This document shows, piece after piece, positions 12,252 to 55,917 of a stretch of DNA of 64,000 bases. Position 1 is the stretch's first letter. Every line of letters begins with the position of its first letter. The stretch comes from Escherichia coli. Its GTDB lineage: Bacteria > Pseudomonadota > Gammaproteobacteria > Enterobacterales > Enterobacteriaceae. The position numbers and the translations under genes are program-made. Where the stretch lies: assembly GCF_050920415.1 (NCBI RefSeq), contig NZ_CP169309.1. One strand, given 5' to 3'. The notes beneath the pieces were generated by a model. It saw nothing but the letters and a program-made list of their open reading frames with translations. It was not told where the DNA came from and did no database searches.

Positions 12252-12614
12252 ATGTTTCTAAACTATTTCGCGTTGGGAGTGCTGATCTTCGTCTTTCTGG
12301 TGATTTTTTATGGAATCATCGCGATACATGACATCCCTTATCTGATTGCCAAAAAGCGCAATCACCCCCATGCCGACGCTATTCATACGGCGGGCTGGGT
12401 GAGCCTGTTTACTCTGCATGTTATCTGGCCGTTCCTGTGGATCTGGGCGACGCTCTATCAACCGGAGCGTGGCTGGGGTATGCAGTCACATGTTGCGTCG
12501 CAGGAGAAAGCGACTGACCCGGAAATCGCCGCACTTTCTGACCGAATTTCCCGGCTGGAGCATCAACTCGCCGCCGAGAAAAACGCTGACTATTCCACGT
12601 TCCCGGAGATCTAA
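12252..12614 (+). CDS. yibI: Small inner-membrane protein YibI (YiaW paralogue)
   Basis: [45 protein letters not shown]...; paralogue of the ORF at 36942; immediately upstream of the HlyD-like gene as in K-12. Confidence 0.75.
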
Positions 12615-13296
12615 TTATGGATCTGTTGATTGTTTTAACTTACGTGGCGCTGGCATGGGCGGTCTTTAAAATCTTCCGTATTCCGGTGAATCAGTGGACG
12701 CTGGCGACGGCGGCGCTGGGAGGCGTTTTTCTGGTAAGCGGTTTGATTTTGTTGATGAACTACAACCACCCTTACACTTTTACCGCACAGAAAGCGGTGA
12801 TTGCTATTCCCATCACGCCACAGGTGACGGGGATCGTGACTGAAGTCACTGACAAGAATAATCAGCTTATTCAGAAGGGCGAGGTGCTTTTTAAGCTCGA
12901 CCCGGTACGTTATCAGGCGCGAGTCGACAGACTTCAGGCTGACCTGATGACGGCGACGCATAATATAAAGACGCTGCGCGCGCAGCTCACTGAAGCGCAA
13001 GCCAATACCACCCAGGTTTCAGCGGAGCGTGACCGCTTGTTTAAAAATTATCAACGTTACCTGAAAGGCAGCCAGGCGGCGGTAAATCCGTTCTCAGAAC
13101 GTGATATCGACGATGCGCGGCAGAATTTTCTCGCGCAGGATGCGCTGGTGAAAGGTTCGGTGGCGGAACAGGCGCAAATCCAGAGCCAGCTCGACTGTCA
13201 GCGCCAATGATATAAGACAGTAATTCACCATTTGGATTGTCCGCTCCACCCAACATGTTGTTTCCTTAAGGTTCCTACACCACAAAGGGAACACTC

Positions 13297-14343
13297 ATGC
13301 TGAGCAGAGAGGACTTTTACATGATAAAGCAAATGCGCCAGCAAGGTGCGTATATTGTTGATATTGCCACTCAGGTTGGTTGCTCTGAGCGGACTGTCAG
13401 ACGGTACCTGAAATACCCGGAACCTCCGGCCAGAAAAACACGCCACAAAATGGCCAAACTCAAGCCGTTCATGGACTATATCGACATGCGTCTGGCTGAG
13501 AATGTCTGGAACGGCGAGGTCATCCTGGCGGAAATCAAAGCGATGGGTTATACCGGTGGCCGTTCCATGTTGCGTTACTACATCCAGCCCAAACGTAAGA
13601 TGCGGCCATCGAAGAAAACGGTTCGCTTCGAAACTCAGCCCGGTTACCAGCTACAGCATGACTGGGGAGAAGTTGAGGCTGAGGTTGCCGGGCAACGATG
13701 CAGGGTTAACTTCGCGGTTAATACGCTGGGGTTCTCACGTCGCTTCCATGTCTTCGCGGCACCAAAGCAGGATGCTGAACATACCTATGAGTCACTGGTC
13801 CGCGCCTTTCGCTACTTCGGCGGCAGCGTGAAAACCGTGCTGGTCGATAACCAGAAAGCCGCAGTGCTGAAAAATAACAACGGGAAGGTGGTGTTCAACT
13901 CCGGGTTCCTGCTGCTGGCCGATCACTATGGCTTCCTGCCACGGGCCTGCCGTCCACGAAGGGCCAGAACCAAAGGTAAGGTGGAACGGATGGTGAAATA
14001 CCTCAAGGAAAACTTCTTCGTCCGGTACCGCCGGTTCGACAGCTTCGCCCATGTTAATCAGCTACTGGAGCAGTGGATGGCTGACGTTGCCGACAGGCGG
14101 GAACTTCGCCAGTTCAGGCAGACACCGGAACAGCGCTTCACGCAGGAACAGGTGCATCTGCAGGCGCTGCCAGGTACGGACTTCGATACCAGCTACTTCG
14201 ATATCCGTCATGTCTCCTGGGATGGCTATATCGAGGTTGGCGGGAACCGTTACAGCGTGCCGGAAAGCCTGTGTGGCCAGCCGGTATCAATACGGATCTC
14301 GCTGGATGATGAACTGCGATTTACAGTAATGAGCAACAGGTAG
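13297..14343 (+). CDS. istA: IS21-family transposase IstA, apparently frameshifted near its 3' end
   Basis: HTH N-terminus and DDE-like core. The ORF stops at 14343, but another frame continues ...[13 protein letters not shown] to a TGA at 14466-14468 that overlaps the istB ATG, the usual istA/istB junction. Confidence 0.7.
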   Translation: MLSREDFYMIKQMRQQGAYIVDIATQVGCSERTVRRYLKYPEPPARKTRHKMAKLKPFMDYIDMRLAENVWNGEVILAEIKAMGYTGGRSMLRYYIQPKRKMRPSKKTVRFETQPGYQLQHDWGEVEAEVAGQRCRVNFAVNTLGFSRRFHVFAAPKQDAEHTYESLVRAFRYFGGSVKTVLVDNQKAAVLKNNNGKVVFNSGFLLLADHYGFLPRACRPRRARTKGKVERMVKYLKENFFVRYRRFDSFAHVNQLLEQWMADVADRRELRQFRQTPEQRFTQEQVHLQALPGTDFDTSYFDIRHVSWDGYIEVGGNRYSVPESLCGQPVSIRISLDDELRFTVMSNR

Positions 14344-14455
14344 CATCGCACCGTCTCTGTTCGGCTGTATACGGCTGGCAGACCGTGCCGGAGCATCACG
14401 CCCCACTCTGGCAGCAGGTCAGTCAGGTGGAACACAGGCCGTTGAGTGCCTATGA

Positions 14456-15262
<807 letters not shown>

Positions 15263-15884
15263 TGACCAATAGCGGACATTAAAAATGGCGAAAAACGGCC
15301 AATAATCTTGGCGTTGACACGACAGTATGGTTAACGGTGAGCAGTCGCAGATTGTCAGCTTAAGGGCGCAGCTTACCGAAGCGAAATATAACCTTGAGCA
15401 GACCGTCATTCGCGCGCCGAGCAATGGCTACGTTACTCAGGTACTGATCCGCCCAGGTACATACGCAGCTGCCTTGCCGCTACGTCCGGTGATGGTTTTC
15501 ATCCCCGAGCAAAAACGGCAAATTGTCGCCCAATTTCGGCAGAACTCGCTGTTACGTCTGAAACCCGGCGATGATGCGGAAGTAGTGTTTAACGCGCTAC
15601 CTGGGCAGGTGTTCCACGGCAAACTGACTAGTATTTTACCTGTCGTGCCAGGTGGTTCGTATCAGGCGCAGGGGGTACTGCAATCATTAACCGTCGTACC
15701 CGGCACGGACGGTGTGCTGGGAACCATCGAACTGGACCCTAACGCTGATATCGATGCTTTACCCGACGGCATCTACGCCCAGGTGGCAGTTTACTCCGAC
15801 CATTTCAGCCATGTTTCGGTGATGCGGAAGGTGCTGCTAAGAATGACCAGTTGGATGCATTATCTTTATTTGGATCATTGAGGG

Positions 15885-16450
15885 GGGCGGGGGAGATTAT
15901 GGAACTTTGCTCCTTGTAAGGACTAATTATTTTTGCATATTACTTCATTGGCTGCGATGATTTTTCTTTAATATTCATTAGGTTGAGAAGTTCTTGATGA
16001 GTGTGCTCTCATTGGATTTTTTATCCGTCTTGTTCTGCCGCAGGATCAGACTATACATCGTCGAGATCGCAATGATTATGAATTGTTCCTCTGCGACGAT
16101 GCTAATCAAAAAAGTGCTGGAGTGCTTTTCCATCTATTGCGATGATGGTTTTATTATCTGAAGAATGACAGTCACACATCCAGCTAATAAAGAACTCGTG
16201 AAATTTTCCAGGACTGATACAGGACACAACTCTGGTAATGATATCGTGAATAGGAATACCATATTAAAAATCACCATATTGCTTCAACAAATCGAGATGA
16301 GTCTCACCAGAATCCTCTATATCTTCCCATCCTTCAGCTCCGGAAATGATGGCGAAAATAATCAGCACTAGGATATCTGATAATTTATACTCTACTTTCC
16401 AGACTTGTCTGTAATCGGGACAGTAGAAATATGCTCCATTAATTTTTTAA
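15885..16450 (-). pseudogene. Degenerate H-repeat (ISAs1-family) transposase remnant
   Basis: Minus-strand translation gives [11 protein letters not shown]..., then after stops and frameshifts ...AIDGKALQ...RRRGTIH...ELLNLMNIKEK, matching H-rpt transposase motifs as I recall them. Confidence 0.5.
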
Positions 16451-16915
16451 GTTCCATTTTTTCTCCTTGTTTATGTAAGGAGTGTCTGAATATATATAAG
16501 CTATGAAAACACTTATTAAATAATAAGGGATATCTTGATTATTGGACATTTAGTGCTAATTGTTTAGTGCAAAAAATCGGCGTTATATGGTCTTTACCTT
16601 TATTACCCTTGCTGTTTTCCTCCAGCCTATGAAAAGCCAGCTTCAGTAAATCGTACCGCCCGAACATTGTAAGATACAATTTACTGACAACTTAGTACAT
16701 TATTAATATCACATTTAAGCTTTTTTTTCAGATTATAAAGCCTGTCCACTTTATAATCTTTGCAATTATAAACGTATTCTTTTTTTGTTTTCATATCAAT
16801 GACACTAACCCCTCGCATGTTACTACCGTTGTCGTAATTGCTAAACACGGAGTACTTATATCCACTTTGAATAAAACTAACGCTAAAGTAATCCGTTTGA
16901 AATCTGGAGTAATGA

Positions 16916-17128
16916 TTATAAAAAATCCTGAATACATTGGTCCATCTGAAATGAATTGAAATTTATCCCATGCTGACTATTCATTTCATAAATCAACGTT
17001 TCACCAAAACTTGTTAATGACAAAGTTCCTTTGGATGTATTACATAAAAAATAATTATTTCCTGCGTTTAGAGTCCAGGGAATTCCAGATAAAAAAATAA
17101 AAATTAATGCTCTATCTATATTGCTCAT
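16916..17128 (-). CDS. Hypothetical small protein downstream of the orphan toxin fragment; possible immunity-gene remnant
   Basis: 70-aa ORF whose start overlaps the end of the orphan toxin ORF; AT-rich; no recognisable motif. Confidence 0.25.
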   Translation of the reverse strand: MSNIDRALIFIFLSGIPWTLNAGNNYFLCNTSKGTLSLTSFGETLIYEMNSQHGINFNSFQMDQCIQDFL

Positions 17129-18290
17129 AATTAGCCCTTATTCTGTCATCATATCCTCGCTGACTTTGCCCATTATAACATAGAGCAAAGTTAAGCCAAT
17201 CTTTATCTCTAATAGCACGCAATAATACAGGATTAGATTTTATGAAGTTAATGAATGCCGCCAGATGGTTTTTCTCTGACTCTGAAATCGATATTATAAA
17301 CTCTTCGGGCGAAGAGTACCCGGCAGCTTGGTAATTTGAAGCCAATATCTGAAATTTACCCCACGATGCCGATTTAAGCGCAGCTTGCTTATCTAAAACA
17401 TATGCACGAAGTAATTTTTGATATTGCTCCGATCGTGTTCCATAACCGCCAGAACGGCTGTTGGAAATATCAGGTTGAGAATCATACACACCATTCGTAT
17501 ATCGATGGAAATGATGTCTTTCAAAAAGAATTGAGGGGACGTAATCATCTTCTTGTTCAAATTTAAAATAGCTACCGGAACTACCAGTTTCAGTTTTTGC
17601 AACAGCTTTAATTGCAGCCACTTCGCATTGTAGTGTCCTTGCAGCATTTTCATAGTCTGCATCATCAATGGTATCTCCGTTATAAAATCGTAAAAATTCC
17701 AATGGAATAAGTTCATTATTTACAGGAGTTTTTGGGTAATTGCTATTATTAATAGCATTCAAAAACACAACCGGATGAAAATGCCACACAGCATCATCAC
17801 TATTAAACGGAGACACCCCGCTCATCCACTCCAGATCCAGCTGCCACTTTTCACAGTATGCCACTTCCTCGGGTCCAGATCTTTATAAAACCCTTCCCAG
17901 CGTCCCGTCGAGCGACCGCCGTACCACTCGCTGTGGTGTCTGACTGTCAGACGATTCACCACATTTCTCACCAGTGGTTCACGCACGGTCAGCGCCTGTC
18001 TGATCTCTTCCTCCGTCACTTTTCCATCACCGTCCTGATCCATACCCGCCATCAGCTCACGATAAAAGGGCGGTACCTGCTCATACAGCCACTCATCTCC
18101 CTGTTCTGCGGCACGGCTTATTGAGTCAAACGCTTCCGGCACCCATCCTTCGTACGGGCTGTACGTCATGTCACCGCTGCTGTTCTCCTCCAGCGGCTGA
18201 AAACCCAGCTTCAGTAAATCATACTGTCCGGCCTCTTCAACATCCTTCTGTGGCAGCCAGCCGGTTCCGGTGATATTAAGCCGCCTCTGG
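17112..18290 (-). pseudogene. Orphan 3' fragment of a VgrG-linked effector paralogue: EF-hand linker plus an alternative C-terminal muramidase-like domain, frameshifted near 17860
   Basis: ORFs 17822-18391 and 17112-17864 are collinear with residues about 383-556 of the 829-aa effector at 19290-21779 (NITGTGWLPQKDVEEAGQ...DQDGDGKVTEEE...AYCEKWQLDLEWMSGVSPFNSDDAVWHFHPVVFL), then diverge into a different C-terminal domain (...FERHHFHRYT...SWGKFQILASNY...). Confidence 0.55.
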
Positions 18291-18572
18291 TTTCCTTTTA
18301 ATAAAGCACTCGTGAAATTTTGCAGGACTGATACAGGATACAACTCTGGCAATGGTATCGTGAACAGGAATACCATTATCAAAATCACCATATTGCTTCA
18401 AAAAATCGAGATGTGTTTCCCCAAAATCCTCTATATCTTCCCAGCCTTCTGCACCCGAAATAACGGCACAAATAGTCAACAGTAGAATATCCGATAATTT
18501 ATGTTGCACTTTCCAGGCTTGTCTGTAATCGGGGATAATAGAAATATGTCCCATCAATTTTTTAAGTTCCAT
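18276..18572 (-). pseudogene. H-repeat (ISAs1-family) transposase N-terminal fragment, about 90 codons, fused to the orphan toxin fragment
   Basis: [60 protein letters not shown]... matches the N-terminus of H-rpt transposases; a second copy with its upstream sequence is repeated at about 16150-16600. Confidence 0.6.
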
Positions 18573-18873
18573 TTTGTTCTCCTTAATTATGTAAGGAGTA
18601 TTTGATCATGTATAAGCAATAAAAAACAGCTTTAGGTAATGAGGAATATCTCAATTTTCAAACATAAAATGCGAATTGTCTAGTACAAAAAAGCAGCGTT
18701 ACGTGATCTTTCCCTGCCTGCCTGTACGATATCCCTCAAAAATAATTTTCCAGTCAGTTATTCATGTCTAACTTAAAATCATAAAACATTTAAATTAATA
18801 ATAAACAAATTCAACCTAGTCGCATTATTATTTTAATAACACAGCATCGATTTCATAAAAAACTGCACAATGG

Positions 18874-19284
18874 TCATCCAGTCCATTTGCAATCAGTACC
18901 ATCATCATTATATGCCTCAATATTTTCTTCAAACTCAGTTGTTTTCCCACTTATTGATTTATAATGAAACAAATTAAATCTTGCACCTTGTGTGGAAACA
19001 ACATACAACCCATTAATTTTTCCATTTACAACCTCGCTCCATGCATAAGAAAATTCAGAAGGCCTGTCATCGAAAGTCACTTCTAATTTATTTATAAACG
19101 CAAGAGGTATAAATTTTGAGGATTTCTCATAAATCACATAACCTAAAAAAATATCGCCAGACGATATTTCAACAAACTTTAAATTTGTTTTCCCAGCGCT
19201 AAAACAGCCTACCGTTGTTTGTTGTTTAGCCAATAAACAACAAGGCACCAAACAAAACAGTAAAACCAATAAGTTAACTTTCAT
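18874..19284 (-). CDS. Small secreted protein, putative immunity protein for the effector at 19290-21779
   Basis: N-terminal Sec-type signal peptide MKVNLLVLLFCLVPCCLLA; GGAG ribosome-binding site; starts 5 bp after the effector stop; AT-rich. Confidence 0.5.
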   Translation of the reverse strand: MKVNLLVLLFCLVPCCLLAKQQTTVGCFSAGKTNLKFVEISSGDIFLGYVIYEKSSKFIPLAFINKLEVTFDDRPSEFSYAWSEVVNGKINGLYVVSTQGARFNLFHYKSISGKTTEFEENIEAYNDDGTDCKWTG

Positions 19285-19289
19285 ATCAA

Positions 19290-21779
19290 TTACTCCAGTT
19301 CAGTTATTCGTCTCTCTACAAATGTGGATATATTCCTTTTTTCTATTCCATATACTTTTCTATCACCCTCACGCCCTTCCTGAGGAAACGGATGCAGGTC
19401 AATTAATTCTTTCGCCCTTCTATAACCTTTTAATGCTTCTTCGTTACTCTTGATCGTCCCTCTTCGGGAGCTATCAGGATCATGCCATATCCCCCATCCC
19501 AAAGCATATACTTTATTATCATATACGTCACTATCATCAAACAAGAAATCGTCGTTCATTGCTTTCTGATTTAAATGCTCGGCAGCAAGTGAGGTAACCA
19601 ATTTATTAAATATCGACAACCGTTCATCATAATGATTATACCCTCCATTAATCACTGCTGTAATTTTATTAAAATCATCATTTTTAGCATCTTCATTTAT
19701 TCTTTTGAATATATTGAAATACCAAAACGCAGATAATACGCAATGTGGGGAGGATATAAGTTTATCTCTTGCGGAATCTGAAGATGTTACGTCCTCATTG
19801 ATATATTCCCCATAGGCGGTGTAATTACTTTCCCCTGTAACTTGTATTAAGCCTCGGCCATACCACGGACTATATGAAGCTGATTCACCATTAATTTCTT
19901 TGGTATATCTAAAATAACCGCTCTCGTGAATAATTTGAGCAAGAAAATGGGCTTTTTCTCTACAAGTGGTCATACCAAACCGAATAAACCCTGCATTTAT
20001 ATCGTAGAGGTACCTTTTGAGAAGACCTTCACTTACTGCAGGAGCAACTTTTTTTAATTCATCTAATGTTATATCTCTGTTGCAAGCACACACAGATTTG
20101 GAATTAATAGCGTCCAAAAACACAACCGGATGAAAATGCCACACAGCATCATCACTATTAAACGGAGATACCCCGCTCATCCACTCCAGATCCAGCTGCC
20201 ACTTCTCACAGTATGCCACTTCCTCTGTGTCCAGATCTTTATAAAATCCTTCCCACCGCCCTGTCGAGCGCCCTCCGTACCATTCGCTGTGGTGTTTAAC
20301 TATCAGATGATTCACCACATTTCTCACCAGTGGTTCACGCACGGTCAGCGCCTGTCTGATCTCTTCCTCCGTCACTTTTCCATCACCGTCCTGATCCATA
20401 CCCGCCATCAGCTCACGATAAAAGGGCGGTACCTGCTCATACAGCCACTCATCTCCCTGTTCTGCGGCACGGCTTATTGAGTCAAACGCTTCCGGCACCC
20501 ATCCTTCGTACGGGCTGTACGTCATGTCACCGCTGCTGTTCTCCTCCAGCGGTTGAAAACCCAGCTTCAGTAAATCATACTGTCCGGCCTCTTCAACATC
20601 CTTTTGTGGCAGCCAGCCGGTTCCGGTGATATTAAACCACCACTGCTGCGATTCATCCGTGATCGGTGTCGTGGCTTCCCGCGGAAGAACGCGCTGAGCA
20701 CCCAGTGTGGCTGCGGTTGCGGTAAATACCTCCTGTCCCGGAACGGCCTGCCGGGTGTATAAAATTATCCCTTTTGGTGCCAGAACAGTCCGTTTTTCTC
20801 CCTTAACGCCTGCCGGGTTGGATAAGAACTTTGGCATATTCGGGTCTGTACTCAGAACCTCCAGATGGACGAACCACTCGCGCTCAATCTCACCGCTTCC
20901 CTCGCCAGGATAATCCTCGCATCCCATAAATCCGACCGGTGTTCCGGCACTGACTTTCCACTCTTCCGTTTCGTCGACCGTCTGTACCGAGTCAAAAATG
21001 CCTTTTGCCTTCGCCTTCTGCATCCACTCAGGCATCAGCATCTGTATTTCGCCATCTGACTCCATCAGATCCGGATCCAGGGTCACCCAGTACTGCTCAT
21101 TCCCCGGTTTATTGCCTTCCAGCAGGCGAACCAGTCCGAATGTCGTCAGGACCGGCTGGCCGTTATTGGTCACGTAAAAACGTCCGGTCCGGGATGACAC
21201 AAACCGATCTCCCGCATTAAGTGTCCTGTTTCCGCTGATTTTCGGGGGTATCCAGTACGTGGCATGATCTCCGCTTTCCTGCCCCTCGGGAAGGCCGTTC
21301 TTTCCCGGGATGTATCGGTGCAGCAATATGCCACCATGCCCGGTTTTAACTTTATAGCAGGGGGAGCCGGGATAATCGTTCACCGGGGCCAGATGCATAT
21401 AGAGACAGTAAAATTCCAGCCAGCTTTCTTTTTTTTGCGGGTCTGGCTGGCACTGCGATTTCACCAGAACAAATGTGCTGCTGTAACGGAGTTGCTGCCC
21501 TTTGTAGGTGCCTTTCAGGTAATCATTATTTATCCGGTACGCCGCAATGGTGCCATCGGCCATAAACTGAAGAGGAACCGGTTCTCCGGTAGCGGCGGTA
21601 TCCGGTTTCAGGGCTGATAACGGATTAGACACGTCACTGATATGTATCCCGCCGTGCCACAGCCCGTTTCCACCCAGCAGCCAGGTTCCGTGCGCTTCTT
21701 TGTCAATAAGCCGCATTATCTCATCCAGCGAGCGAAACTCTTTGCCTTCTTTATCCCTGATGGGATGGCTGATTTTCAT
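19290..21779 (-). CDS. VgrG-linked multidomain putative T6SS effector (829 aa): N-terminal M23-like region, EF-hand loop, C-terminal GH19-like glycoside hydrolase
   Basis: Starts 9 bp after the vgrG stop. WHGGIHI, LYMHL and GTPVGFMG...FVHLEV resemble M23 (lysostaphin/LytM) motifs; DQDGDGKVTEEE is a canonical 12-residue EF-hand loop; AHFLAQIIHESG...YGRGLIQVTGESNY resembles GH19 signatures. No signal peptide. Confidence 0.6.
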   Translation of the reverse strand: MKISHPIRDKEGKEFRSLDEIMRLIDKEAHGTWLLGGNGLWHGGIHISDVSNPLSALKPDTAATGEPVPLQFMADGTIAAYRINNDYLKGTYKGQQLRYSSTFVLVKSQCQPDPQKKESWLEFYCLYMHLAPVNDYPGSPCYKVKTGHGGILLHRYIPGKNGLPEGQESGDHATYWIPPKISGNRTLNAGDRFVSSRTGRFYVTNNGQPVLTTFGLVRLLEGNKPGNEQYWVTLDPDLMESDGEIQMLMPEWMQKAKAKGIFDSVQTVDETEEWKVSAGTPVGFMGCEDYPGEGSGEIEREWFVHLEVLSTDPNMPKFLSNPAGVKGEKRTVLAPKGIILYTRQAVPGQEVFTATAATLGAQRVLPREATTPITDESQQWWFNITGTGWLPQKDVEEAGQYDLLKLGFQPLEENSSGDMTYSPYEGWVPEAFDSISRAAEQGDEWLYEQVPPFYRELMAGMDQDGDGKVTEEEIRQALTVREPLVRNVVNHLIVKHHSEWYGGRSTGRWEGFYKDLDTEEVAYCEKWQLDLEWMSGVSPFNSDDAVWHFHPVVFLDAINSKSVCACNRDITLDELKKVAPAVSEGLLKRYLYDINAGFIRFGMTTCREKAHFLAQIIHESGYFRYTKEINGESASYSPWYGRGLIQVTGESNYTAYGEYINEDVTSSDSARDKLISSPHCVLSAFWYFNIFKRINEDAKNDDFNKITAVINGGYNHYDERLSIFNKLVTSLAAEHLNQKAMNDDFLFDDSDVYDNKVYALGWGIWHDPDSSRRGTIKSNEEALKGYRRAKELIDLHPFPQEGREGDRKVYGIEKRNISTFVERRITELE

Positions 21780-21788
21780 GTTCAGTCC

Positions 21789-23990
21789 TTATCGTGAGAA
21801 TCTTCCCGGCCGTTGTGGCGGTACCTTATCCTGCTGGGGAGGATCAAAGGCTTCCTGTACATTTTTCCGTGGTGGCTCCGCCCCTTCAGTTCCAGGTCCG
21901 CCATTGTCATAATCTGCCAGCGCTTTCAAAACCGCCGGTCGTAGTGTCGGCACCGGCGTTCCCGGACTACCGCCGCTATTGAGATTGATTTTCGGCCCGA
22001 CGATGTCCACGCCCCCTGAATGGATGACCACAAACGAACCACCCACCTTCAGGGTGATTTTACCGCCACTCTCCAGTACGATTTCATCCCGGACCTTCAT
22101 TCCCAGCGCACCGGTAATCTTCCTCGCCAGGTCGCCCTTCACCTCCAGACTGTGCGTTCCCTCCACCAGACTGATATGGTTCCCCGTCGTCTTATGCTCC
22201 TGCTTCCCTTCCACCGTCACTTTACGGTCGTTTCTGACATACAGGCCGTCATCGTGACTCACGCTCACCGTCCGGTCATTCGTCACCTTCAGCGTCTGGT
22301 CATTACGTACCGTTATGCGCCGGTCGTTCGCCACCGTGATACTCTGGTCGTGGCCCCCTTCTTTTCTGGTGCCGACCTCAACCGTCTGCCCCTTCACCAC
22401 CCTTATCTTCTGGTCGTTACCGATGGTCTCCGTATGGTCATGCTTCACGTCCGTCGTCCGGTCGTTAAGCACCTCCGTGTCCATGTTCTTCTGCGCGTGG
22501 ATATACACCTGCTCACTGTCCGTCGCATCCTCGAAACGCAGTTCATTAAAGCCGCTTCCTTTATAGGTCTTCGAGCGGATGGTCATCTGCGTCCGCGTGC
22601 CCGGTAAATCCCCCGGTGAACGGTTATCTTCATGGTAGGTCCGCCCCGTCACAATGGGCTGGTCCGGGTCGCCGTTCAGAAAGTCCACTATCACTTCCTG
22701 ACCCACACGCGGTATCGCCAGATTGCCGAACCCCGGTCCCGCCCATGCCTGCGACACCCGTATCCAGCATGAACTCTCCTCCGTCATCCCGTGATAACGG
22801 TCCCAGTGAAACTTCACCCGTACCCGGCCATGCTCGTCGCAGAATATCTCCTCGCCCTTCGGCCCGGTCACGATGGCACTCTGCGGGCCGTCCACCTTCG
22901 GCTTCGGCAGGGGCTGTGAGCGCCAGGTCCGGTCTGCCGGGATGACCGTGATATGGTTACTCAGTGTCGTTCCCCTCCCCTGGCTCCCGTGCAGCGCCTG
23001 CGGCTGGCTCCCCGTCAGCGTGCTGCTCACCACCTGCCACTCACGGTTCGGGTTCGCTCCCTGTACCGGATGCCCCGTCAGGGTGAACCGCCGTCCCGGC
23101 CACAGCGCCGGGGAGTTACTGATACCTGTGGCGGTTTCAGCACTGTTACGCAGCCCTTCCAGCCGGTAGCGGGTAAAGTCCTGACCATGCTGCTCGTCCT
23201 TGTAGCGCCCCGGCCAGTCCAGGATTTTGTACTGCTTCAGTTGCTCGTTGAGGTTTTCAGCATCCTCAATGTAAATACCCGGCCAGTCCGGCACCTTAAA
23301 CGTGTGGTCTTTTGAACGCACCTGCGAGGGCCGCACCTGCGCCTGGTAGCGGAACAGGCTGATGCACGCCGTCGTCACCTCACGGGTGTTCGGGTTAAAC
23401 GGTATCTCCCCGTACACCGGCAGGCCCGCCACATCATCGCACAGCGTGAGCGTCTGCTCCGGGCTGTCGTCAGCGTATCTGTCATAAAAGAAGATGCCTT
23501 CCTCCGCCCACAGCCGGGTCAGAAACGCCAGGTCGCTTTCACCGTACTGGACGCAGAACTCCCGTGCCGGGTGGCTCTCATAAAAGCGCGGCGTCCACTG
23601 CGTCACTCCGTCCTCGTTTAACAGCGTGGCGGAGATGGCCTGAATGTCCTGCTGCTGGAAGATTCGGTAGTTCTGCCGCAGCCCGCTGCGCCACAGGGGC
23701 GGGCGTATCTGAAGGTGGTACTGCATCTGCCAGCCGTTGTGCTCCTTCATGCCTAACCCCGACACCACACCGCTCACATAACGCAGCGCCGTGCCACCCT
23801 GCCAGATGGTCAGCACGGCCCCCTTCTCCAGCAGCTTCTCCGCCGTCTGGCGGAACGAGTCGCTGGCAACGTCCACATCCAGGACGAACGGCGATGAGTA
23901 TGCCTGCGTGAGGCGGAAATCCACCACCGCGAACGTCTCCGGCACCAGTCCGTCCACCGTCAGCGTAAAACGCAGCCCTTTTAATGACAT
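21789..23990 (-). CDS. vgrG: Type VI secretion spike protein VgrG (733 aa)
   Basis: MSLKGLRFTLTVDGL... N-terminus, gp27/gp5-like core with beta-helix repeats (VRNDQTLKVTNDRTVSVSHDD...), GGAGG-type RBS. Confidence 0.9.
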   Translation of the reverse strand: MSLKGLRFTLTVDGLVPETFAVVDFRLTQAYSSPFVLDVDVASDSFRQTAEKLLEKGAVLTIWQGGTALRYVSGVVSGLGMKEHNGWQMQYHLQIRPPLWRSGLRQNYRIFQQQDIQAISATLLNEDGVTQWTPRFYESHPAREFCVQYGESDLAFLTRLWAEEGIFFYDRYADDSPEQTLTLCDDVAGLPVYGEIPFNPNTREVTTACISLFRYQAQVRPSQVRSKDHTFKVPDWPGIYIEDAENLNEQLKQYKILDWPGRYKDEQHGQDFTRYRLEGLRNSAETATGISNSPALWPGRRFTLTGHPVQGANPNREWQVVSSTLTGSQPQALHGSQGRGTTLSNHITVIPADRTWRSQPLPKPKVDGPQSAIVTGPKGEEIFCDEHGRVRVKFHWDRYHGMTEESSCWIRVSQAWAGPGFGNLAIPRVGQEVIVDFLNGDPDQPIVTGRTYHEDNRSPGDLPGTRTQMTIRSKTYKGSGFNELRFEDATDSEQVYIHAQKNMDTEVLNDRTTDVKHDHTETIGNDQKIRVVKGQTVEVGTRKEGGHDQSITVANDRRITVRNDQTLKVTNDRTVSVSHDDGLYVRNDRKVTVEGKQEHKTTGNHISLVEGTHSLEVKGDLARKITGALGMKVRDEIVLESGGKITLKVGGSFVVIHSGGVDIVGPKINLNSGGSPGTPVPTLRPAVLKALADYDNGGPGTEGAEPPRKNVQEAFDPPQQDKVPPQRPGRFSR

Positions 23991-24145
23991 GATGACCTCC
24001 CTGGTATTGCTACAGGAAAAAGTAATTAACCGATATTGACCGTACCTTCTGATATTCTCTCACTGATTCATTATCTGTATTTCCCATGAACATTCTCATT
24101 TCAACAGGAAAACCAACGAATTGTAGCCATGACAATAAGTTAACA

Positions 24146-25060
24146 TTAATAATTCCTCAACGAATAAGGAGGAGATGCCCTGTCCCCATCAATAGTAACC
24201 ACGACCTGATTTGATCTTATTTTGAATATATTATCATTACCGCCATGATAGCCAAATCGTGCTAAAAAATCCTGAAATAGACCAGGTCCTCTATAAGGTC
24301 CACAGATTCTCCAAACCCGCCACTCCTCTATGCCATACGTTATTTTATCTATAGGATTAGTACACTCTCTTTCTGCCCGCCAGTTCATAATAGAAAGAAA
24401 ATACTCATATATATATTGTTCTGCAAACCACTCTTGATTAACTATTGTAAATTCTACCGTCCCTATATTATAACGATGAATGCCCGGTAAAAAGGCATAA
24501 TAATCGTTCAATGTGACATCAAAGGATAGCTCTTTCCCTGGTAATATCTCGCGCCAAACAGATTTACTTTTCCATTCACCAAAGCTACATTTTGTTTTTT
24601 TTAAAAAATCCAACTGAATGTTATCCATTATCGGTATAAACACACCACTACACAAGGAAGAGTAAGGCCCGCCGTTAACGTCAAGAGGAAGAGTTAGTCG
24701 ATGAACAAAATAAGATCCCTGGCTTTTATTCGATAAAACCACTGCAGCTGCTACAATATTTTCTTTCTGATGCACGGAAAGATGAAGATATATTTTATTT
24801 TTATCCTGATTATACTGACTCTCATTTTTACTGATAGTATAATATTGAAAAACAGCATAGGCTGAAAGATCATCATAATAATCATAATAATTAAGCCTTG
24901 TCGGTTCTACACGAGGATAGACACCAAGTTTTTCCATTACTCCATTCCAATGTAACTTCCCATATCTGTAATGAACCGCATAATCGCCAGAGATATCATA
25001 AGCAAATATTGGATGCACCCAAGAAAAAAAAGCAATAAAAACAATCCATCTAGCAAGCAT
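24146..25060 (-). CDS. Secreted protein with Sec signal peptide, putative immunity protein for the HExxH effector
   Basis: Start placed at the ATG at 25058-25060 (strong GGGGGAG RBS), giving MLARWIVFIAFFSWVHPIFA as signal peptide; 25 bp after the effector stop. Confidence 0.5.
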   Translation of the reverse strand: MLARWIVFIAFFSWVHPIFAYDISGDYAVHYRYGKLHWNGVMEKLGVYPRVEPTRLNYYDYYDDLSAYAVFQYYTISKNESQYNQDKNKIYLHLSVHQKENIVAAAVVLSNKSQGSYFVHRLTLPLDVNGGPYSSLCSGVFIPIMDNIQLDFLKKTKCSFGEWKSKSVWREILPGKELSFDVTLNDYYAFLPGIHRYNIGTVEFTIVNQEWFAEQYIYEYFLSIMNWRAERECTNPIDKITYGIEEWRVWRICGPYRGPGLFQDFLARFGYHGGNDNIFKIRSNQVVVTIDGDRASPPYSLRNY

Positions 25061-25084
25061 ATACTCCCCCGTCAAATAAAAGCA

Positions 25085-25930
25085 TCAATATGGTACAGGA
25101 ATCTCGAAATAACGTTCGATATTATATGCATTCTGAAACAGTTCTGATTTTTTATCATTTTTTAATTTAGTGGCATGAGCAATATATTCGTCACCTGTAC
25201 TATACTCTATATCTACCGGCATATCTTCCGTCCACATGCCTCCAAACTTAAGTGAATCCCCGTACCTTATAAAGTGAGATAGTTCATGGCAGAGTGTCGA
25301 TGCCTTAGAGTTTTCCCCAGTGAATGGCCTATCTATAAATCTTTGTCCTATAGTTATACTTACCAAACTTTTAAAGCTTCCAGATTTTACACCCAAAATC
25401 TGATCGTAAGTTACATTGGCAGCATAAGCGTCATTATCTGTACAATTCACAAAGTTACCAATTTTGGGCCTGATTACGTCTTTGTCAACATATTCATTAC
25501 CCCCTTTGTCATTAAGAACAAGATTACAATTGGCATCACGTTTGAGGAAATGGTCATGAACGGTAACGTCTACACAATCACCTTCCACAGATAATTCCCC
25601 ACATATCTCATACAGGCGAGTAACGCCATTTCTCATATAATCCCTTGCCTTTATATTCTCTGTAAACAGAGTATTACGCCCCCCGAAAGGGAACTTTAAT
25701 TTAATATAAGTATTTCCATCAATGCCAAATATATTTATAAATTCCTGATTTTGTTCCGCCCCCCATTTATCACCAAGATCTTCTACTCTTTTTTTCAATA
25801 CAGCCATCTGCGCCTTCAGAGCCTCTCTCATCATTATTTTAAAATCATTAGTAATTTTCCCCTCCTTTAAAACTACACACTGTTCACCACTCTGGCTTTT
25901 TCCGCTCGTACTACCCTTTTCATCTCCCAT
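25085..25930 (-). CDS. VgrG-linked putative zinc-metallopeptidase-like effector (281 aa, HExxH)
   Basis: CHELSHF (HExxH) at residues 215-219, with a possible downstream Asp ligand in STGDEY; hydrophilic N-terminus with no signal peptide; AAGGAGGA RBS; 81 bp after the vgrG stop. Confidence 0.5.
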   Translation of the reverse strand: MGDEKGSTSGKSQSGEQCVVLKEGKITNDFKIMMREALKAQMAVLKKRVEDLGDKWGAEQNQEFINIFGIDGNTYIKLKFPFGGRNTLFTENIKARDYMRNGVTRLYEICGELSVEGDCVDVTVHDHFLKRDANCNLVLNDKGGNEYVDKDVIRPKIGNFVNCTDNDAYAANVTYDQILGVKSGSFKSLVSITIGQRFIDRPFTGENSKASTLCHELSHFIRYGDSLKFGGMWTEDMPVDIEYSTGDEYIAHATKLKNDKKSELFQNAYNIERYFEIPVPY

Positions 25931-26011
25931 ATAAATCCTCCTTGGTATATATTTTCACTACAAACCCTGTTCCATTTATGCAAAAACACGCCAATTACAG
26001 GCGGTCACTCT

Positions 26012-28324
26012 CTATTCATTAATCCCTCCCCATATCATATCGATATTCAAATGCAACAATCTGACGTCTATTGTCTGCTCGCTGTCAGTGGTGAATATTT
26101 CCGTATACCCATCCTTATCCGTTTCTCCGCGGGTCTGCGTGCCGTCCTCAAAGAAGGCAATGTAGCGTGTCTCTGAATACGGTATCCCGTCATCGTCTGT
26201 AAAATGGAACTGGAGAGTATATTTTTCAGGGTTCTCATCATCATTCTCATCCTCCAGCGCCTCCAGTACAACCGGTTGCAGCGTCGATACTGGCGTCCCC
26301 GGACCTCCCCCACCATTCAGGTTTATCTTCGGCCCCACTATATCCACGCCGCCAGAGTGTATCACCACGAACGAACCGCCCGCTTTCAGGCTTATCTGGC
26401 TGCTGCTCTCCAGCACGATATCCCCGTCCACCTTTATCCCCAGCGCGCCACTCACCTTCTCCGCCAGGTCACCCTTCACCTCCAGGCTGTGTTTCCCCTC
26501 CACCAGGCTGATATGGTTTCCCGTCGTCTTATGCTCCTGCTTCCCTTCCACCGTCACTTTACGGTCGTTTCTGACATACAGGCCGTCATCGTGACTCACG
26601 CTCACCGTCCGGTCATTCGTCACCTTCAGCGTCTGGTCATTACGTACCGTTATGCGCCGGTCGTTCGCCACCGTGATACTCTGGTCGTGACCCCCTTCTT
26701 TTCTGGTGCCGACCTCAACCGTCTGCCCCTTCACCACCCTTATCTTCTGGTCGTTACCGATGGTCTCCGTATGGTCATGCTTCACGTCCGTCGTCCGGTC
26801 GTTAAGCACCTCCGTGTCCATGTTCTTCTGCGCGTGGATATACACCTGCTCACTGTCCGTCGCATCCTCGAAACGCAGTTCATTAAAGCCGCTTCCTTTA
26901 TAGGTCTTCGAGCGGATGGTCATCTGCGTCCGCGTGCCCGGTAAATCCCCCGGTGAACGGTTATCTTCATGGTAGGTCCGCCCCGTCACAATGGGCTGGT
27001 CCGGGTCGCCGTTCAGAAAGTCCACTATCACTTCCTGACCCACACGCGGTATCGCCAGATTGCCGAACCCCGGTCCCGCCCATGCCTGCGACACCCGTAT
27101 CCAGCATGAACTCTCCTCCGTCATCCCGTGATAACGGTCCCAGTGAAACTTCACCCGTACCCGGCCATGCTCGTCGCAGAATATCTCCTCACCCTTCGGC
27201 CCGGTCACGATGGCACTCTGCGGGCCGTCCACCTTCGGCTTCGGCAGCGGCGCGTGACGCCACGTCCTGTCTGCCGGTATCACCTCAAACTGATTGCTCA
27301 GTGTCGTCCCTTCACCGTGACTCCCGTGCAGCGCCTGCGGCTGTTCTCCCCGCAGTGTGCTTCCCACAACCTGCCATTCCCGGTTCAGCGTCGCTGACGG
27401 ATGGCCCGTCAGCCGGAACCGCGTTCCCGGCCACAGCCGCGCCGTGTTACACACCCCGCTCGCCGTCTCCGCCCCGTTCCGCCACCCTTCCGTCTGGTAA
27501 CGCGCAAAATCCTGGCCATGCTGCTCATCCTTGAAACGCCCCGGATAATCAAATATCTCGTACTGCGTTCCCTGTCCGTTCAGGCTCTCCCCGTCATGGC
27601 TGTAGTACCCCGGCCACCCCGGCGTTTTGAACGTATAATCCTGCGTCTCCACCGACGCCACGCTTATCTGCGCACGGTAACGGAAGTCGCGGATGTACTC
27701 TGTCGTGCCTCCGGTCGTGGTATTCGGGTTAAACGCCAGCGCCCCCATTCCCGTCAGCCCCGCCACGTCATCACACACCGCCAGCTTCTGTTCCGGCCCG
27801 TCCTGACTGCAGCGTTCATAAAAGAAGATACCTTCCTCCGCCCACAGCCGGGTCAGGAATGTCAGGTCGCTCTCCCCGTACTGCACGCAGAACTCCCGCG
27901 CCGGGTGCGCCTCATAGAACAGCGGCATCCACGCCGTCACCCCGTTCTCTTCAAGAAGCTGCGCTGATATCGTCTGAATGTCCTGCTGCTGGAAGATACG
28001 GAAGTTCTGCCGTAACCCTGCCCGCCACAGCGGCGGGCTGATGCTCAGGGAATAACGCATCTGCCAGTCGTTGTTCTCACCGAGCTGCACCTCTGTCACG
28101 ATACCGCTGACGTAACGCTGTGCAGTGTCGCCCTGCCAGACCGTCAGCACCGCGCTTTTCTCCAGAAAATCTTCTGCCGTCAGGTCAGACAGTCCGCTGG
28201 CGATATCCACATCCAGGATGAACGGTGTGCAGTGGTGCTGGTACAGACGGAAGCTCACCACCGCCGTCGCCATCTCCACAATACCGTCCACCGACAGCGT
28301 GAAACGTAATCCTTCTGCTGCCAT
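26012..28324 (-). CDS. vgrG: Type VI secretion spike protein VgrG with a divergent acidic C-terminal extension (about 770 aa)
   Basis: Start set at MAAEGLRFTLSVDG (ATG at 28322-28324); core nearly identical to the vgrG at 21789-23990; C-terminal 100 aa (...EDENDDENPEKYTLQFHFTDDDGIPYSE...) is unique. Confidence 0.9.
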   Translation of the reverse strand: MAAEGLRFTLSVDGIVEMATAVVSFRLYQHHCTPFILDVDIASGLSDLTAEDFLEKSAVLTVWQGDTAQRYVSGIVTEVQLGENNDWQMRYSLSISPPLWRAGLRQNFRIFQQQDIQTISAQLLEENGVTAWMPLFYEAHPAREFCVQYGESDLTFLTRLWAEEGIFFYERCSQDGPEQKLAVCDDVAGLTGMGALAFNPNTTTGGTTEYIRDFRYRAQISVASVETQDYTFKTPGWPGYYSHDGESLNGQGTQYEIFDYPGRFKDEQHGQDFARYQTEGWRNGAETASGVCNTARLWPGTRFRLTGHPSATLNREWQVVGSTLRGEQPQALHGSHGEGTTLSNQFEVIPADRTWRHAPLPKPKVDGPQSAIVTGPKGEEIFCDEHGRVRVKFHWDRYHGMTEESSCWIRVSQAWAGPGFGNLAIPRVGQEVIVDFLNGDPDQPIVTGRTYHEDNRSPGDLPGTRTQMTIRSKTYKGSGFNELRFEDATDSEQVYIHAQKNMDTEVLNDRTTDVKHDHTETIGNDQKIRVVKGQTVEVGTRKEGGHDQSITVANDRRITVRNDQTLKVTNDRTVSVSHDDGLYVRNDRKVTVEGKQEHKTTGNHISLVEGKHSLEVKGDLAEKVSGALGIKVDGDIVLESSSQISLKAGGSFVVIHSGGVDIVGPKINLNGGGGPGTPVSTLQPVVLEALEDENDDENPEKYTLQFHFTDDDGIPYSETRYIAFFEDGTQTRGETDKDGYTEIFTTDSEQTIDVRLLHLNIDMIWGGINE

Positions 28325-28539
28325 ATAAACCCCATAGCTACCGCACTCATAGTGCAAACCATACGGGCTTATAAGAAAGGCTTAAGTGAGATATCTGCCA
28401 GATAGCAACTATTAGGAAAATATTTATATCACCATGATAAATATGTGATTTATTGGGAGATAACAAACCATCAACATTTTCTGCCCTTTTTCCCATCACC
28501 AGGCCATACTGATATTTTTCCTCGCACAAAGGACTCGGC

Positions 28540-29148
28540 ATGAAACTCGTCGGTAGCTACACCAGCCCGTTTGTACGCAAACTTTCTATTCTGTTGTTAG
28601 AAAAGGGCATAACTTTCGAATTTATTAATGAACTGCCCTATAACGCGGACAACGGCGTGGCGCAATTTAACCCGTTAGGGAAAGTGCCGGTGCTGGTGAC
28701 CGAAGAGGGCGAATGTTGGTTTGATTCGCCGATCATCGCTGAATATATTGAATTAATGAATGTCGCTCCGGCGATGTTGCCGCGCGATCCGCTGGAGTCG
28801 TTGCGAGTGCGCAAAATTGAGGCGCTGGCGGATGGCATTATGGATGCCGGGCTGGTATCGGTGCGTGAACAGGCGCGTCCGGCGGCGCAGCAGTCTGAAG
28901 ATGAATTGTTACGCCAGCGGGAGAAAATCAACCGCAGTCTGGATGTGCTGGAAGGATATCTGGTCGATGGCACGCTCAAAACCGATACGGTCAATCTGGC
29001 GACTATCGCCATTGCCTGTGCCGTCGGATATCTCAATTTCCGCCGCGTTGCGCCAGGCTGGTGTGTCGACCGCCCACACTTAGTCAAACTGGTCGAAAAC
29101 CTGTTTAGCCGCGAAAGTTTTGCCCGCACCGAACCGCCAAAGGCTTGA
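28540..29148 (+). CDS. yibF: Glutathione S-transferase-like protein YibF (202 aa)
   Basis: [28 protein letters not shown]... thioredoxin-like GST N-terminal domain; upstream of selA as in K-12. Confidence 0.85.
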
Positions 29149-29245
29149 TGCGCGATATGTCCTCCTGACCCATCTCACGTTACAATCCGTGGTTATGTTA
29201 AACGCCCTTCTCCGTGTGAGAGGGCCTTGATCAACCAGGTTTCCT

Positions 29246-30637
29246 ATGACAACCGAAACGCGTTCCCTCTATAGTCAACTTCCGGCTATTGATCGCTTAT
29301 TGCGCGATAGCTCTTTCCTTTCTTTGCGTGATACCTATGGTCACACCCGCGTGGTGGAGTTGCTGCGTCAGATGCTTGACGAAGCGCGAGAAGTGATTCG
29401 TGACAGCCAGACGCTACCCGCGTGGTGTGAAAACTGGGCGCAAGAAGTTGATGCCCGGTTGACGAAAGAGGCGCAAAGCGCGCTGCGTCCGGTGATCAAC
29501 CTGACGGGAACCGTGCTGCATACCAACCTTGGGCGAGCTTTACAGGCGGAAGCCGCGGTGGAGGCTGTTGCGCAGGCTATGCGTTCGCCAGTAACCCTCG
29601 AATACGATCTGGACGACGCCGGACGCGGACATCGCGATCGGGCGCTGGCGCAGCTGCTGTGCCGTATTACGGGGGCGGAAGATGCCTGTATCGTTAATAA
29701 CAATGCGGCGGCGGTCTTGTTGATGTTGGCGGCCATTGCCAGCGGGAAAGAGGTTGTGGTTTCTCGCGGTGAACTGGTGGAGATTGGCGGTGCGTTTCGT
29801 ATTCCCGATGTTATGCGCCAGGCAGGCTGCACACTACACGAAGTGGGGACCACCAACCGCACGCACACTAATGATTATCGTCAGGCGGTGAATGAAAATA
29901 CCGCTCTGTTGATGAAAGTACATACCAGTAACTACAGCATTCAGGGGTTCACCAAAGCGATAGATGAAGCTGAACTGGTGGCGCTCGGCAAAGAGCTGGA
30001 TGTTCCCGTAGTGACTGACTTAGGCAGCGGCTCGCTGGTCGATCTTAGCCAGTACGGTTTGCCGAAAGAGCCAATGCCGCAGGAGTTGATTGCGGCGGGC
30101 GTCAGTCTGGTGAGCTTCTCCGGCGACAAGCTGTTAGGCGGGCCGCAGGCAGGAATTATTGTTGGTAAAAAAGAGATGATCGCCCGCCTGCAAAGCCATC
30201 CACTGAAGCGTGCATTACGCGCGGATAAAATGACCCTCGCGGCGCTGGAAGCCACGTTGCGTCTTTATTTACACCCTGAGGCGCTGAGTGAAAAATTACC
30301 GACCCTGCGTCTGCTTACCCGCAGCGCAGAGGTCATTCAAATCCAGGCACAACGTTTACAGGCCCCCCTTGCCGCACATTACGGCGCGGAGTTTGCGGTA
30401 CAGGTTATGCCATGTCTTTCGCAGATTGGCAGTGGTTCGCTGCCGGTTGATCGCCTGCCGAGCGCGGCATTAACGTTTACACCCCATGATGGACGCGGTA
30501 GCCACCTTGAGTCATTAGCCGCCCGCTGGCGTGAATTGCCAGTGCCGGTGATTGGTCGTATTTATGACGGACGATTGTGGCTGGATTTACGCTGCCTTGA
30601 AGATGAGCAACGGTTTTTGGAGATGTTGTTGAAATGA
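29246..30637 (+). CDS. selA: L-seryl-tRNA(Sec) selenium transferase (463 aa)
   Basis: 463 aa; overlaps selB start (ATGA); PLP-lysine context [13 protein letters not shown]. Confidence 0.9.
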
Positions 30638-36780: not shown

Positions 36781-36941
36781 TATTTCAATATGATAAACCT
36801 CGACCTGTTGAAAAGCCAGGTAGCACACTTCAGAAAGTATATAAAAAACAATATGTCGTTATATAAATAAGGAAATTGCACTGCATCATGGCATTTCATA
36901 ATATGCGTTAATTGTTCTTTTTTATATTCTCTGAGGGAAAT

Positions 36942-37265
36942 ATGTTCCTGGACTATTTTGCACTGGGAGTGCTTATTTTTGTATTTCTGGTGATATTCTA
37001 TGGGATTATTATTTTACATGATATTCCCTACCTGATTGCTAAAAAACGTAATCATCCTCATGCCGACGCCATTCATGTTGCTGGTTGGGTGAGTCTTTTT
37101 ACGCTGCATGTTATCTGGCCATTTTTGTGGATTTGGGCCACGCTTTACCACCCGGAGCGGGGATGGGGAATGCAAAACCATGACTCCTCCGTTGTGCAAC
37201 TACAACAGCGTATTGCCGGGCTGGAGAAACAGCTCGCCGACATCAAATCCTCTTCTGCCGAGTAA
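36942..37265 (+). CDS. yiaW: Small inner-membrane protein YiaW (107 aa)
   Basis: Start at [15 protein letters not shown]... (GAGGGA RBS); paralogue of YibI; directly upstream of yiaV. Confidence 0.8.
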
Positions 37266-37270
37266 TACTT

Positions 37271-54529: not shown

Positions 54530-54575
54530 TGTTTATGCCGGATGCGGCTTAAACGCCTTATCCGGCCTACAAATT
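54530..54575. repeat. REP element
   Basis: gccggatgcggcttaaacgccttatccggcctacaa. Confidence 0.6.
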
Positions 54576-54604
54576 ATTCCAAATTCAATATATTGCAGAA
54601 ATGA

Positions 54605-55897
<1,293 letters not shown>

Positions 55898-55917
55898 CGT
55901 AGTGCATCAGGCAATTT

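Follow-up and report, generated by a model that had tools for sequence, protein, structure and literature searches.

Recurrent gene conversion probably homogenises the core of tandem vgrG genes in an Escherichia coli island at the yibF site

The window, by which we mean the whole 64,000-nucleotide stretch of contig NZ_CP169309.1 that was analysed, is part of an E. coli chromosome and carries a vgrG island between mtlADR/yibI and yibF-selAB. We take the yibF site to be the rhsA position in K-12 and the ybbP site, where a further vgrG copy is found in other strains, to be the rhsD position. In order of transcription on the minus strand, the island consists of vgrG_B, the genes for a 281-aa and a 309-aa protein, vgrG_A, the genes for an 829-aa and a 136-aa protein, and finally ISAs1 remnants with an orphan fragment:

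26012–28324, minus strand: vgrG_B, encoding a T6SS spike protein of 770 aa (RefSeq start) with a C-terminal extension, recognised by TIGR03361 and Pfam
25085–25930, minus strand: 281-aa putative zinc-metallopeptidase effector downstream of vgrG_B, with an HELSH (HExxH) motif
24146–25075, minus strand: 309-aa protein with a hydrophobic signal-like N-terminus, the putative immunity protein of the M35-like effector
21789–23990, minus strand: vgrG_A, encoding a T6SS spike protein of 733 aa, recognised by TIGR03361 and Pfam
19290–21779, minus strand: 829-aa predicted effector downstream of vgrG_A, with an EF-hand motif at aa 455–479 and a weak GH19-like C-terminal domain
18874–19284, minus strand: 136-aa protein with a signal peptide-like N-terminus, a putative periplasmic immunity protein
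17748–18289, minus strand: orphan fragment that matches the central part of the 829-aa effector gene (20103–20645) at 96% identity

Judging from their sequences, VgrG_A and VgrG_B are VgrG/TssI spike proteins of a T6SS. Their scores against TIGR03361 (589 and 591 bits, cut-off 186.35) and TIGR01646 (413 and 431 bits, cut-off 121.8) agree with the identity that a preliminary description of this DNA had given both genes. According to Pfam, the domains follow the order Phage_GPD (30–329), Phage_base_V (the OB domain, 386–452), and Gp5_trimer_C (469–623), and the best solved relatives are the VgrG1 structures 4mtk and 4uhv (E ~1e-88). Both genes are full length with intact N-termini, and the mechanical open reading frame of vgrG_B extends to a TTG at 28357. 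No T6SS core cluster was found within the window.

The roles of the neighbouring genes were assigned from RefSeq names, the HExxH motif, and signal-like N-termini. RefSeq names the orthologue of the 281-aa protein “M35 family metalloendopeptidase” and the 829-aa effector “glycoside hydrolase family 19 protein/chitinase”. In Pfam, NCBIfam, and PADLOC, the 281-aa, 309-aa, and 136-aa proteins had no match, and the 829-aa protein had only weak matches to EF-hand and GH19 models. Base composition divides the island, with 57–65% GC in the vgrG genes vs. 31–39% in the effector and immunity genes, and the 829-aa effector gene is itself GC-rich at its 5′ end and AT-rich at its 3′ end. The orphan effector fragment is frameshifted by a 1-nt deletion at ~17873 and runs on into an alternative, N-acetylmuramidase-like C-terminus (17112–17864).

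The two vgrG genes have a central tract in common that is nearly identical at the nucleotide level:

22183–22910, minus strand: copy of the tract in vgrG_A, differing from its partner at 2 of 728 bases and placed in the protein by the Pfam domain positions
26520–27247, minus strand: copy of the tract in vgrG_B, delimited by an identity profile and a fixed-offset comparison

At a fixed offset of +4337, these 728 nt are 99.7% identical. The only mismatches lie at 22353 and 22854 (partners 26690 and 27191), both at third codon positions, and they divide the tract into exact-match runs of 170, 500, and 56 nt. Because both copies are on the minus strand, they form direct repeats, 4337 bp apart. The preliminary description had already reported a near-identical direct repeat at about 22185–22900 and 26500–27240; the repeat and its orientation are real, and the coordinates were close to the true ends. 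The self-comparison that it had proposed, run here as a self-BLAST of the window, did not lower the identity of the tract substantially. Its further remark that the antisense open reading frames are the same in both copies is correct but trivial, as this follows from identical DNA.

Across the genes as a whole, the self-BLAST aligned 21917–23980 with 26254–28314 at 82.1% identity over 2077 columns. This mean conceals two regimes, which a profile in 60-nt steps makes visible: a near-identical core, at 98–100% from ~22214 to 22873, and divergent flanks, at 55–85% on either side. In the 73 nt that precede the tract in the reading direction of the genes, for example, there are 25 differences. The tract encodes codons 361–603 of vgrG_A and 360–602 of vgrG_B, and all 243 residues are the same in both proteins. 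Its span includes the linker, the OB fold, and the greater part of the gp5-like β-helix, while the gp27-like N-termini and the effector-specific C-termini of the two proteins remain divergent (~30%).

To judge how readily such a run could arise, we redistributed the 386 mismatches at random among the 2071 aligned sites in 20,000 trials. The longest run with no more than two mismatches was 98 nt, compared with the 728 nt observed (0 of 20,000), and with third codon positions alone, the maximum was 65, compared with an observed run of 242. Chance is therefore excluded as the origin of the tract.

An error of assembly or polishing that made two similar regions alike would be a more mundane explanation. 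The only differences between the window and the genome of strain MFDS1022581 are a single SNP and two indels of 1 nt in an IS21 element, and at least one of these indels falls in a homopolymer run, as is typical of sequencing errors; the assemblies are therefore not error-free. However, the tract appears with the same ends in the window, MFDS1022581, and N96, and these three assemblies, which come from different sources, also agree on the two internal mismatches. A fourth assembly (RMDEC465) has a different but equally sharp tract, and a distant third vgrG copy, described below, carries the tract too. An artefact is thus scarcely credible.

The third codon positions are the most informative part of the comparison. 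Between vgrG_A and vgrG_B, they differ at 2 of 242 positions in the tract (0.8%) and at 199 of 448 outside it (44%). When other E. coli vgrG alleles are compared with the tract, 16–28% of third positions and 3–7% of first and second positions differ. Since synonymous sites have been homogenised, selection on the protein cannot explain the tract, and because other alleles vary freely at the same positions, the homogenisation points to recent copying rather than to sequence constraint. A constraint acting on the DNA itself, through a hidden antisense gene, an RNA, or a regulatory site, could draw on the long open reading frames on the plus strand (22020–22607 and 26204–26944). Yet such frames are expected by chance at 57–65% GC, an Rfam scan of 16000–30000 gave no match, and the variation of other alleles at third positions extends across the segment. 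We regard this kind of constraint as having a negligible chance of being correct.

To place the tract in a wider setting, we compared it with 5,426 complete E. coli genomes. It was found at ≥99% identity in only three of them (MFDS1022581, N96, and RMDEC465), with the next best match at ~90%, a distribution too narrow for a universally conserved sequence. The locus with two cassettes was likewise confined to these three genomes. The N-terminal 360 codons of vgrG_A are also a rare type, present at ≥95% nucleotide identity in 3 of the 5,426.

In RMDEC465, the gene order is unchanged, but the stretch without any difference between A and B is 882 nt long and corresponds to 22125–23006 of the window. 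On the coding 5′ side of the tract (22911–22983), all 25 informative sites in the A copy of this strain are of the B type, while on the 3′ side (22134–22182), 5 of 7 sites in the B copy are of the A type. The 5′ extension thus runs from B to A and the 3′ extension from A to B. B-type bases in A together with A-type bases in B indicate that transfers have gone both ways, with different end points.

Further copies of the tract lie elsewhere in these genomes. A third vgrG (copy C) adjoins ybbP in MFDS1022581 and RMDEC465, where it combines a B-type N-terminus, the tract at 98–100% identity, and a C-terminus of its own; a further M35-type cassette follows it. Copies B and C of RMDEC465 match without a difference over 1,816 nt, and the same strain has a copy D, its 5′ end cut off by ISAs1, that carries the tract upstream of a pyocin-type effector. 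The two bases by which vgrG_A of the window differs from vgrG_B are those present in copy C. At one site in the tract (position 1221 of the A copy), all three copies of one lineage read A/A/A and all three of the other read G/G/G. A lineage-specific base common to all three copies is what concerted evolution leaves behind. At two loci, the tract directly adjoins a B-type N-terminus, and this favours a probable B/C-type origin for it.

Taken together, these observations make it highly probable that recurrent gene conversion among vgrG paralogues homogenises the vgrG core in the island at the yibF (rhsA) site. Three features by which gene conversion is recognised were found: a block of near-identity with a sharp drop on both sides (99.7% vs. 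55–85%), homogenised synonymous sites (2/242 vs. 199/448, with 16–28% in other alleles), and a donor in the same genome, the copies being closer to each other than to alleles elsewhere (≥99% vs. ~90%). A patch bounded on both sides is not explained by a single crossover or a simple duplication. The preliminary description had treated the repeat as a substrate for recombination; it missed the point that the repeat is itself a recombination product, a two-sided gene-conversion patch.

A more elaborate history starting from a duplication would also leave a bounded block, if vgrG had been duplicated in tandem and the 5′ and 3′ parts of one copy had then been replaced by foreign sequence. The vgrG genes here are clearly mosaic. 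In vgrG_A, for example, 21909–22182 is 94.5% identical to Tle1-linked vgrG genes of many strains, whose N-termini are only 64–82% identical. Replacement of C-termini along with effector cassettes has moreover been documented for vgrG and rhs (PMC5361080, PMC2935791). However, a relic of this kind requires at least two independent replacements that exactly flank one block, and it fails to account for the tract in copies C and D, the end points in RMDEC465, or the opposite directions of transfer. We therefore consider it very unlikely. A search for a vgrG_A orthologue that had escaped conversion, which would fix the direction of transfer, found none in the collections covered: the next best N-terminus in the 5,426 complete E. 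coli genomes was 76% identical in nucleotides, and the best match in a search of 5.8 billion proteins was 73% identical in amino acids.

Each copy could also have acquired its core independently, by homologous recombination with DNA from outside the genome. Horizontal exchange at the locus is evident from the comparison of the two lineages, in which the island is 99.5% identical and the backbone 97.8%. Still, no external source is present among the 5,426 complete genomes, in which the next best match to the tract is ~90%, whereas a donor is already available 4.3 kb away in the same genome. Independent import also sits poorly with the lineage-specific bases that all paralogues of one genome have in common, and we judge it highly improbable. 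More specifically, only 1–3 of the 728 sites of the tract differ between the two lineages, and their GH19-like cassettes match at 99.5%, as against a divergence of 2.2% in the flanking housekeeping genes (yibF–yiaY). An island more alike than its housekeeping flanks indicates that the island, or parts of it, moved between strains. Horizontal transfer of the island thus contributes to the between-lineage pattern, and part of this pattern could be due to transfer followed by one later event instead of many exchanges within the genome.

Under gene conversion, the core of vgrG (residues 361–603) would have been copied non-reciprocally between paralogues within one E. coli genome. Exchange would start in the core, where alleles are already 80–96% alike, by recombination that we assume to be of the RecA type, and it would be halted by highly divergent flanks such as the mismatch-rich segment 5′ of the tract. 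The event would then be resolved as gene conversion. Such exchange appears to be recurrent and bidirectional within a concertedly evolving family that would include the tandem pair at yibF, copy C at ybbP, and copy D of RMDEC465. Chi sites, considered as possible stimulators of recombination, give no support: the window has 10, all on the plus strand, with none between 9849 and 34691 and so none in the island.

It is also conceivable that the homogenisation is favoured by selection and is not just a neutral by-product, with identical cores allowing VgrG_A, VgrG_B, and the ybbP copy to form mixed trimers or to fit one PAAR or baseplate. One spike could then carry both the GH19-like and the M35-like effectors, while the divergent C-termini would keep cargo specificity. 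We think this very unlikely; VgrG1 and VgrG2 of Serratia have been reported not to form heterotrimers (PMC4924876).

As a by-product of gene conversion, the tract may now make it possible for the 4337-bp unit with the M35-like cassette to be deleted or duplicated in frame. Direct repeats of 728 bp at a distance of 4.3 kb can recombine through RecA in such a way that the cassette between them is lost or duplicated. Crossing-over between the two copies of the tract would remove 4337 bp, and with them the M35-like cassette, while preserving the reading frame and leaving a VgrG with the N-terminus of B and the C-terminus of A ahead of the GH19-like effector, and the reciprocal crossover would duplicate the same unit. 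The preliminary description had predicted such rearrangements, and on general knowledge, its mechanistic reasoning is sound. However, the deletion recombinant (B N-terminus, core, A C-terminus, and GH19-like effector) was not found in the 5,426 complete genomes. Sequences at ≥95% to the A- or B-type N-terminus and the GH19-like cassette occurred in the same three genomes only, all of which keep both cassettes.

The repeat had also been expected to collapse in short-read assemblies. This is plausible, as many VgrG entries in databases are “partial” proteins of ~358–418 aa that end near the start of the conserved core, but the tract itself was resolved identically in three independent complete assemblies. 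Two warnings follow for work on similar loci: vgrG islands of this type may break or be mis-joined in short-read assemblies, and vgrG phylogenies must be built segment by segment.

RecA-dependent gene conversion drives the concerted evolution of bacterial paralogues such as tufA and tufB of Salmonella and the rRNA operons. As in those families, the vgrG paralogues have parts that are nearly identical down to synonymous sites, and lineage-specific substitutions appear in all copies. The difference is one of extent, as the whole gene is homogenised in tuf and rrn but only the central third here; the vgrG flanks are presumably kept diverse because they specify different cargo. The cargo-binding C-terminus and the gp27-like N-terminus that would face the tube and baseplate thus stay different despite the shared core. 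The conserved spike core may therefore be seen as a portable region of homology, held identical among paralogues by conversion, that could recombine machine-facing N-terminal modules with cargo-facing C-terminal modules or delete and duplicate effector cassettes.

Similar processes have been described in other T6SS loci. In Vibrio cholerae, homologous recombination has shaped mosaic clusters of vgrG and effector-immunity genes, and displaced modules pile up downstream (Kirchberger et al. 2017, PMC5361080). There, too, the conserved part of vgrG is the recombination substrate, with variable 3′ ends that travel with the effector-immunity genes, but the exchange is between strains and inserts incoming modules, whereas the patch described here is two-sided and lies among the paralogues of one genome (PMC5361080). 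Both tandem vgrG genes here are also still full length. For T6SS clusters of Pantoea agglomerans, homologous fragments have been read as products of intra-chromosomal recombination that drives effector-immunity diversity; that study concerns Rhs, effector, and immunity fragments in another genus and is not known to describe a defined vgrG conversion tract (bioRxiv 10.1101/2023.03.17.533219). The vgrG tract thus adds a well-resolved case to a known process and reveals no new mechanism. We consider it a clean, dated example of how E. coli may reshuffle its T6SS arsenal, in what would be ordinary evolution for such gene families. A comparable block, ~900 nt long and 95–100% identical, lies elsewhere in the gene in an unrelated tandem vgrG pair of strain ET350, so that patchy homogenisation seems to be a general feature of vgrG islands in E. 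coli.

The closest structural parallel within the species is provided by the Rhs elements. Both they and this island have a GC-rich core, AT-rich variable tips, and ISAs1 (H-repeat) remnants, and the chromosomal sites also coincide, yibF and ybbP being the positions of rhsA and rhsD in K-12. Unequal crossing-over between rhsA and rhsB was reportedly described by Lin, Capage and Hill in 1984. E. coli Rhs elements are known for a conserved core, displacement of C-termini, and orphan tips (Jackson et al. 2009, PMC2935791). Unlike Rhs loci, the island has no rhs gene, its repeated unit is the vgrG core, and its tandem vgrG genes are not truncated orphans. Displacement of the Rhs type, in which the downstream copy loses its 5′ (delivery) part and retains just a core fragment with a new tip, is accordingly not seen in vgrG_A or vgrG_B; it is seen only in truncated vgrG copies of other strains and in the orphan effector fragment at 17748–18289, which fits the Rhs pattern.

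Directly after the 728-nt core tract that vgrG_A nearly shares with its tandem neighbor vgrG_B, vgrG_A contains a segment (21909-22182) with 94.5% identity to Tle1-linked vgrG genes found in many E. coli strains. The N-termini of those same Tle1-linked genes, however, share only 64-82% identity with vgrG_A. Judged by this disparity in sequence identity, vgrG_A is a mosaic, with at least three origins.

Copies of the tract, and a comparable pair of vgrG genes, were also found at other loci in E. coli genomes:

L008 7470-9875, third vgrG of MFDS1022581, at the ybbP locus
L005 4672-7077, third vgrG of RMDEC465
L007 7368-9378 and 13529-15537, tandem vgrG pair of ET350, at the yddH-yncG locus

In both genomes, the third vgrG carries the core tract behind an N-terminus of the B type. 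By record coordinates, it lies about 3.5 Mb away in the same orientation, and it adjoins a different M35-type cassette. In RMDEC465, this gene is 100% identical to vgrG_B of the yibF locus over 1816 nt. The ET350 pair shares a block of ~900 nt at 95-100% identity within flanks of 55-85%, and this block corresponds to the gp27-like part of vgrG rather than the core. Very many VgrG entries in the protein database are labeled partial, with lengths of about 358-418 aa and hundreds to thousands of members, and they stop close to the start of the conserved core. Such end points are consistent with short-read contigs having broken at the repeated vgrG core.

A second direct repeat in the window (543 nt, 96% identity, minus strand) pairs 17748-18289 with 20103-20645, placing a copy of the middle of the 829-aa effector gene 2.36 kb downstream of it:

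17748-18289, minus strand, orphan effector fragment, matching the EF-hand (middle) region of the 829-aa effector gene
17112-17864, minus strand, alternative C-terminus on the orphan, N-acetylmuramidase-like and unlike that of the 829-aa effector

A 1-nt deletion near 17873 splits the orphan into two overlapping ORFs. The orphan of the 829-aa effector gene looks like a displaced toxin tip of the Rhs/CDI kind, one that recombination could swap in.

Insertion sequences lie near this region:

15961-16599 and 18299-18715, ISAs1-family (H-repeat) transposase remnants, on either side of the orphan effector module
13196-15320, IS21-family element ISEc62, interrupting a yibH-like HlyD-family gene

The two ISAs1-family remnants are 82% identical to each other. 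At the corresponding place, RMDEC465 carries an insertion comprising a full ISAs1 copy and a truncated vgrG-pyocin-immunity cassette. Within ISEc62, the window and MFDS1022581 differ by two 1-nt indels (at 14319 and about 14552), such that istA is frameshifted in the window and istB in MFDS1022581. At least one of these indels falls within a homopolymer run, and both are probably sequencing errors.

Ten Chi sites (GCTGGTGG) are spread across 2576-58886, all on the plus strand, compared to a chance expectation of 2. Scanning the window revealed none between 9849 and 34691, a gap that covers the entire vgrG island and is consistent with its foreign origin.

At position 25086, in the stop codon of the 281-aa M35-like ORF, the base in N96 differs from that in the window, and the N96 annotation presents the 281-aa and 309-aa ORFs as a single 594-aa "M35 family metalloendopeptidase." In light of this difference, the 309-aa protein, a putative immunity protein, may instead belong to the effector.

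The window also holds repeats elsewhere:

560-5536, minus strand, YadA-like adhesin gene (1658 aa)
9505-9789, also 444-531, 54536-54595, and 55886-55916, short intergenic repeat elements

Inside the adhesin gene, at 3150-4213, tandem repeats with 81-85% identity recur at a spacing of about 250 nt. The element at 9505-9789, immediately upstream of mtlA and downstream of the annotated mtlD end, consists of two tandem ~135-nt copies (94% identity); together with its relatives at the other three sites, it is probably of the REP/BIME type. Finally, the yibI/yibH-like pair into which the IS21 element is inserted (12240-13194 and 15336-15879) has a paralogous pair about 24 kb away at 36930-38405, with 68-74% identity.
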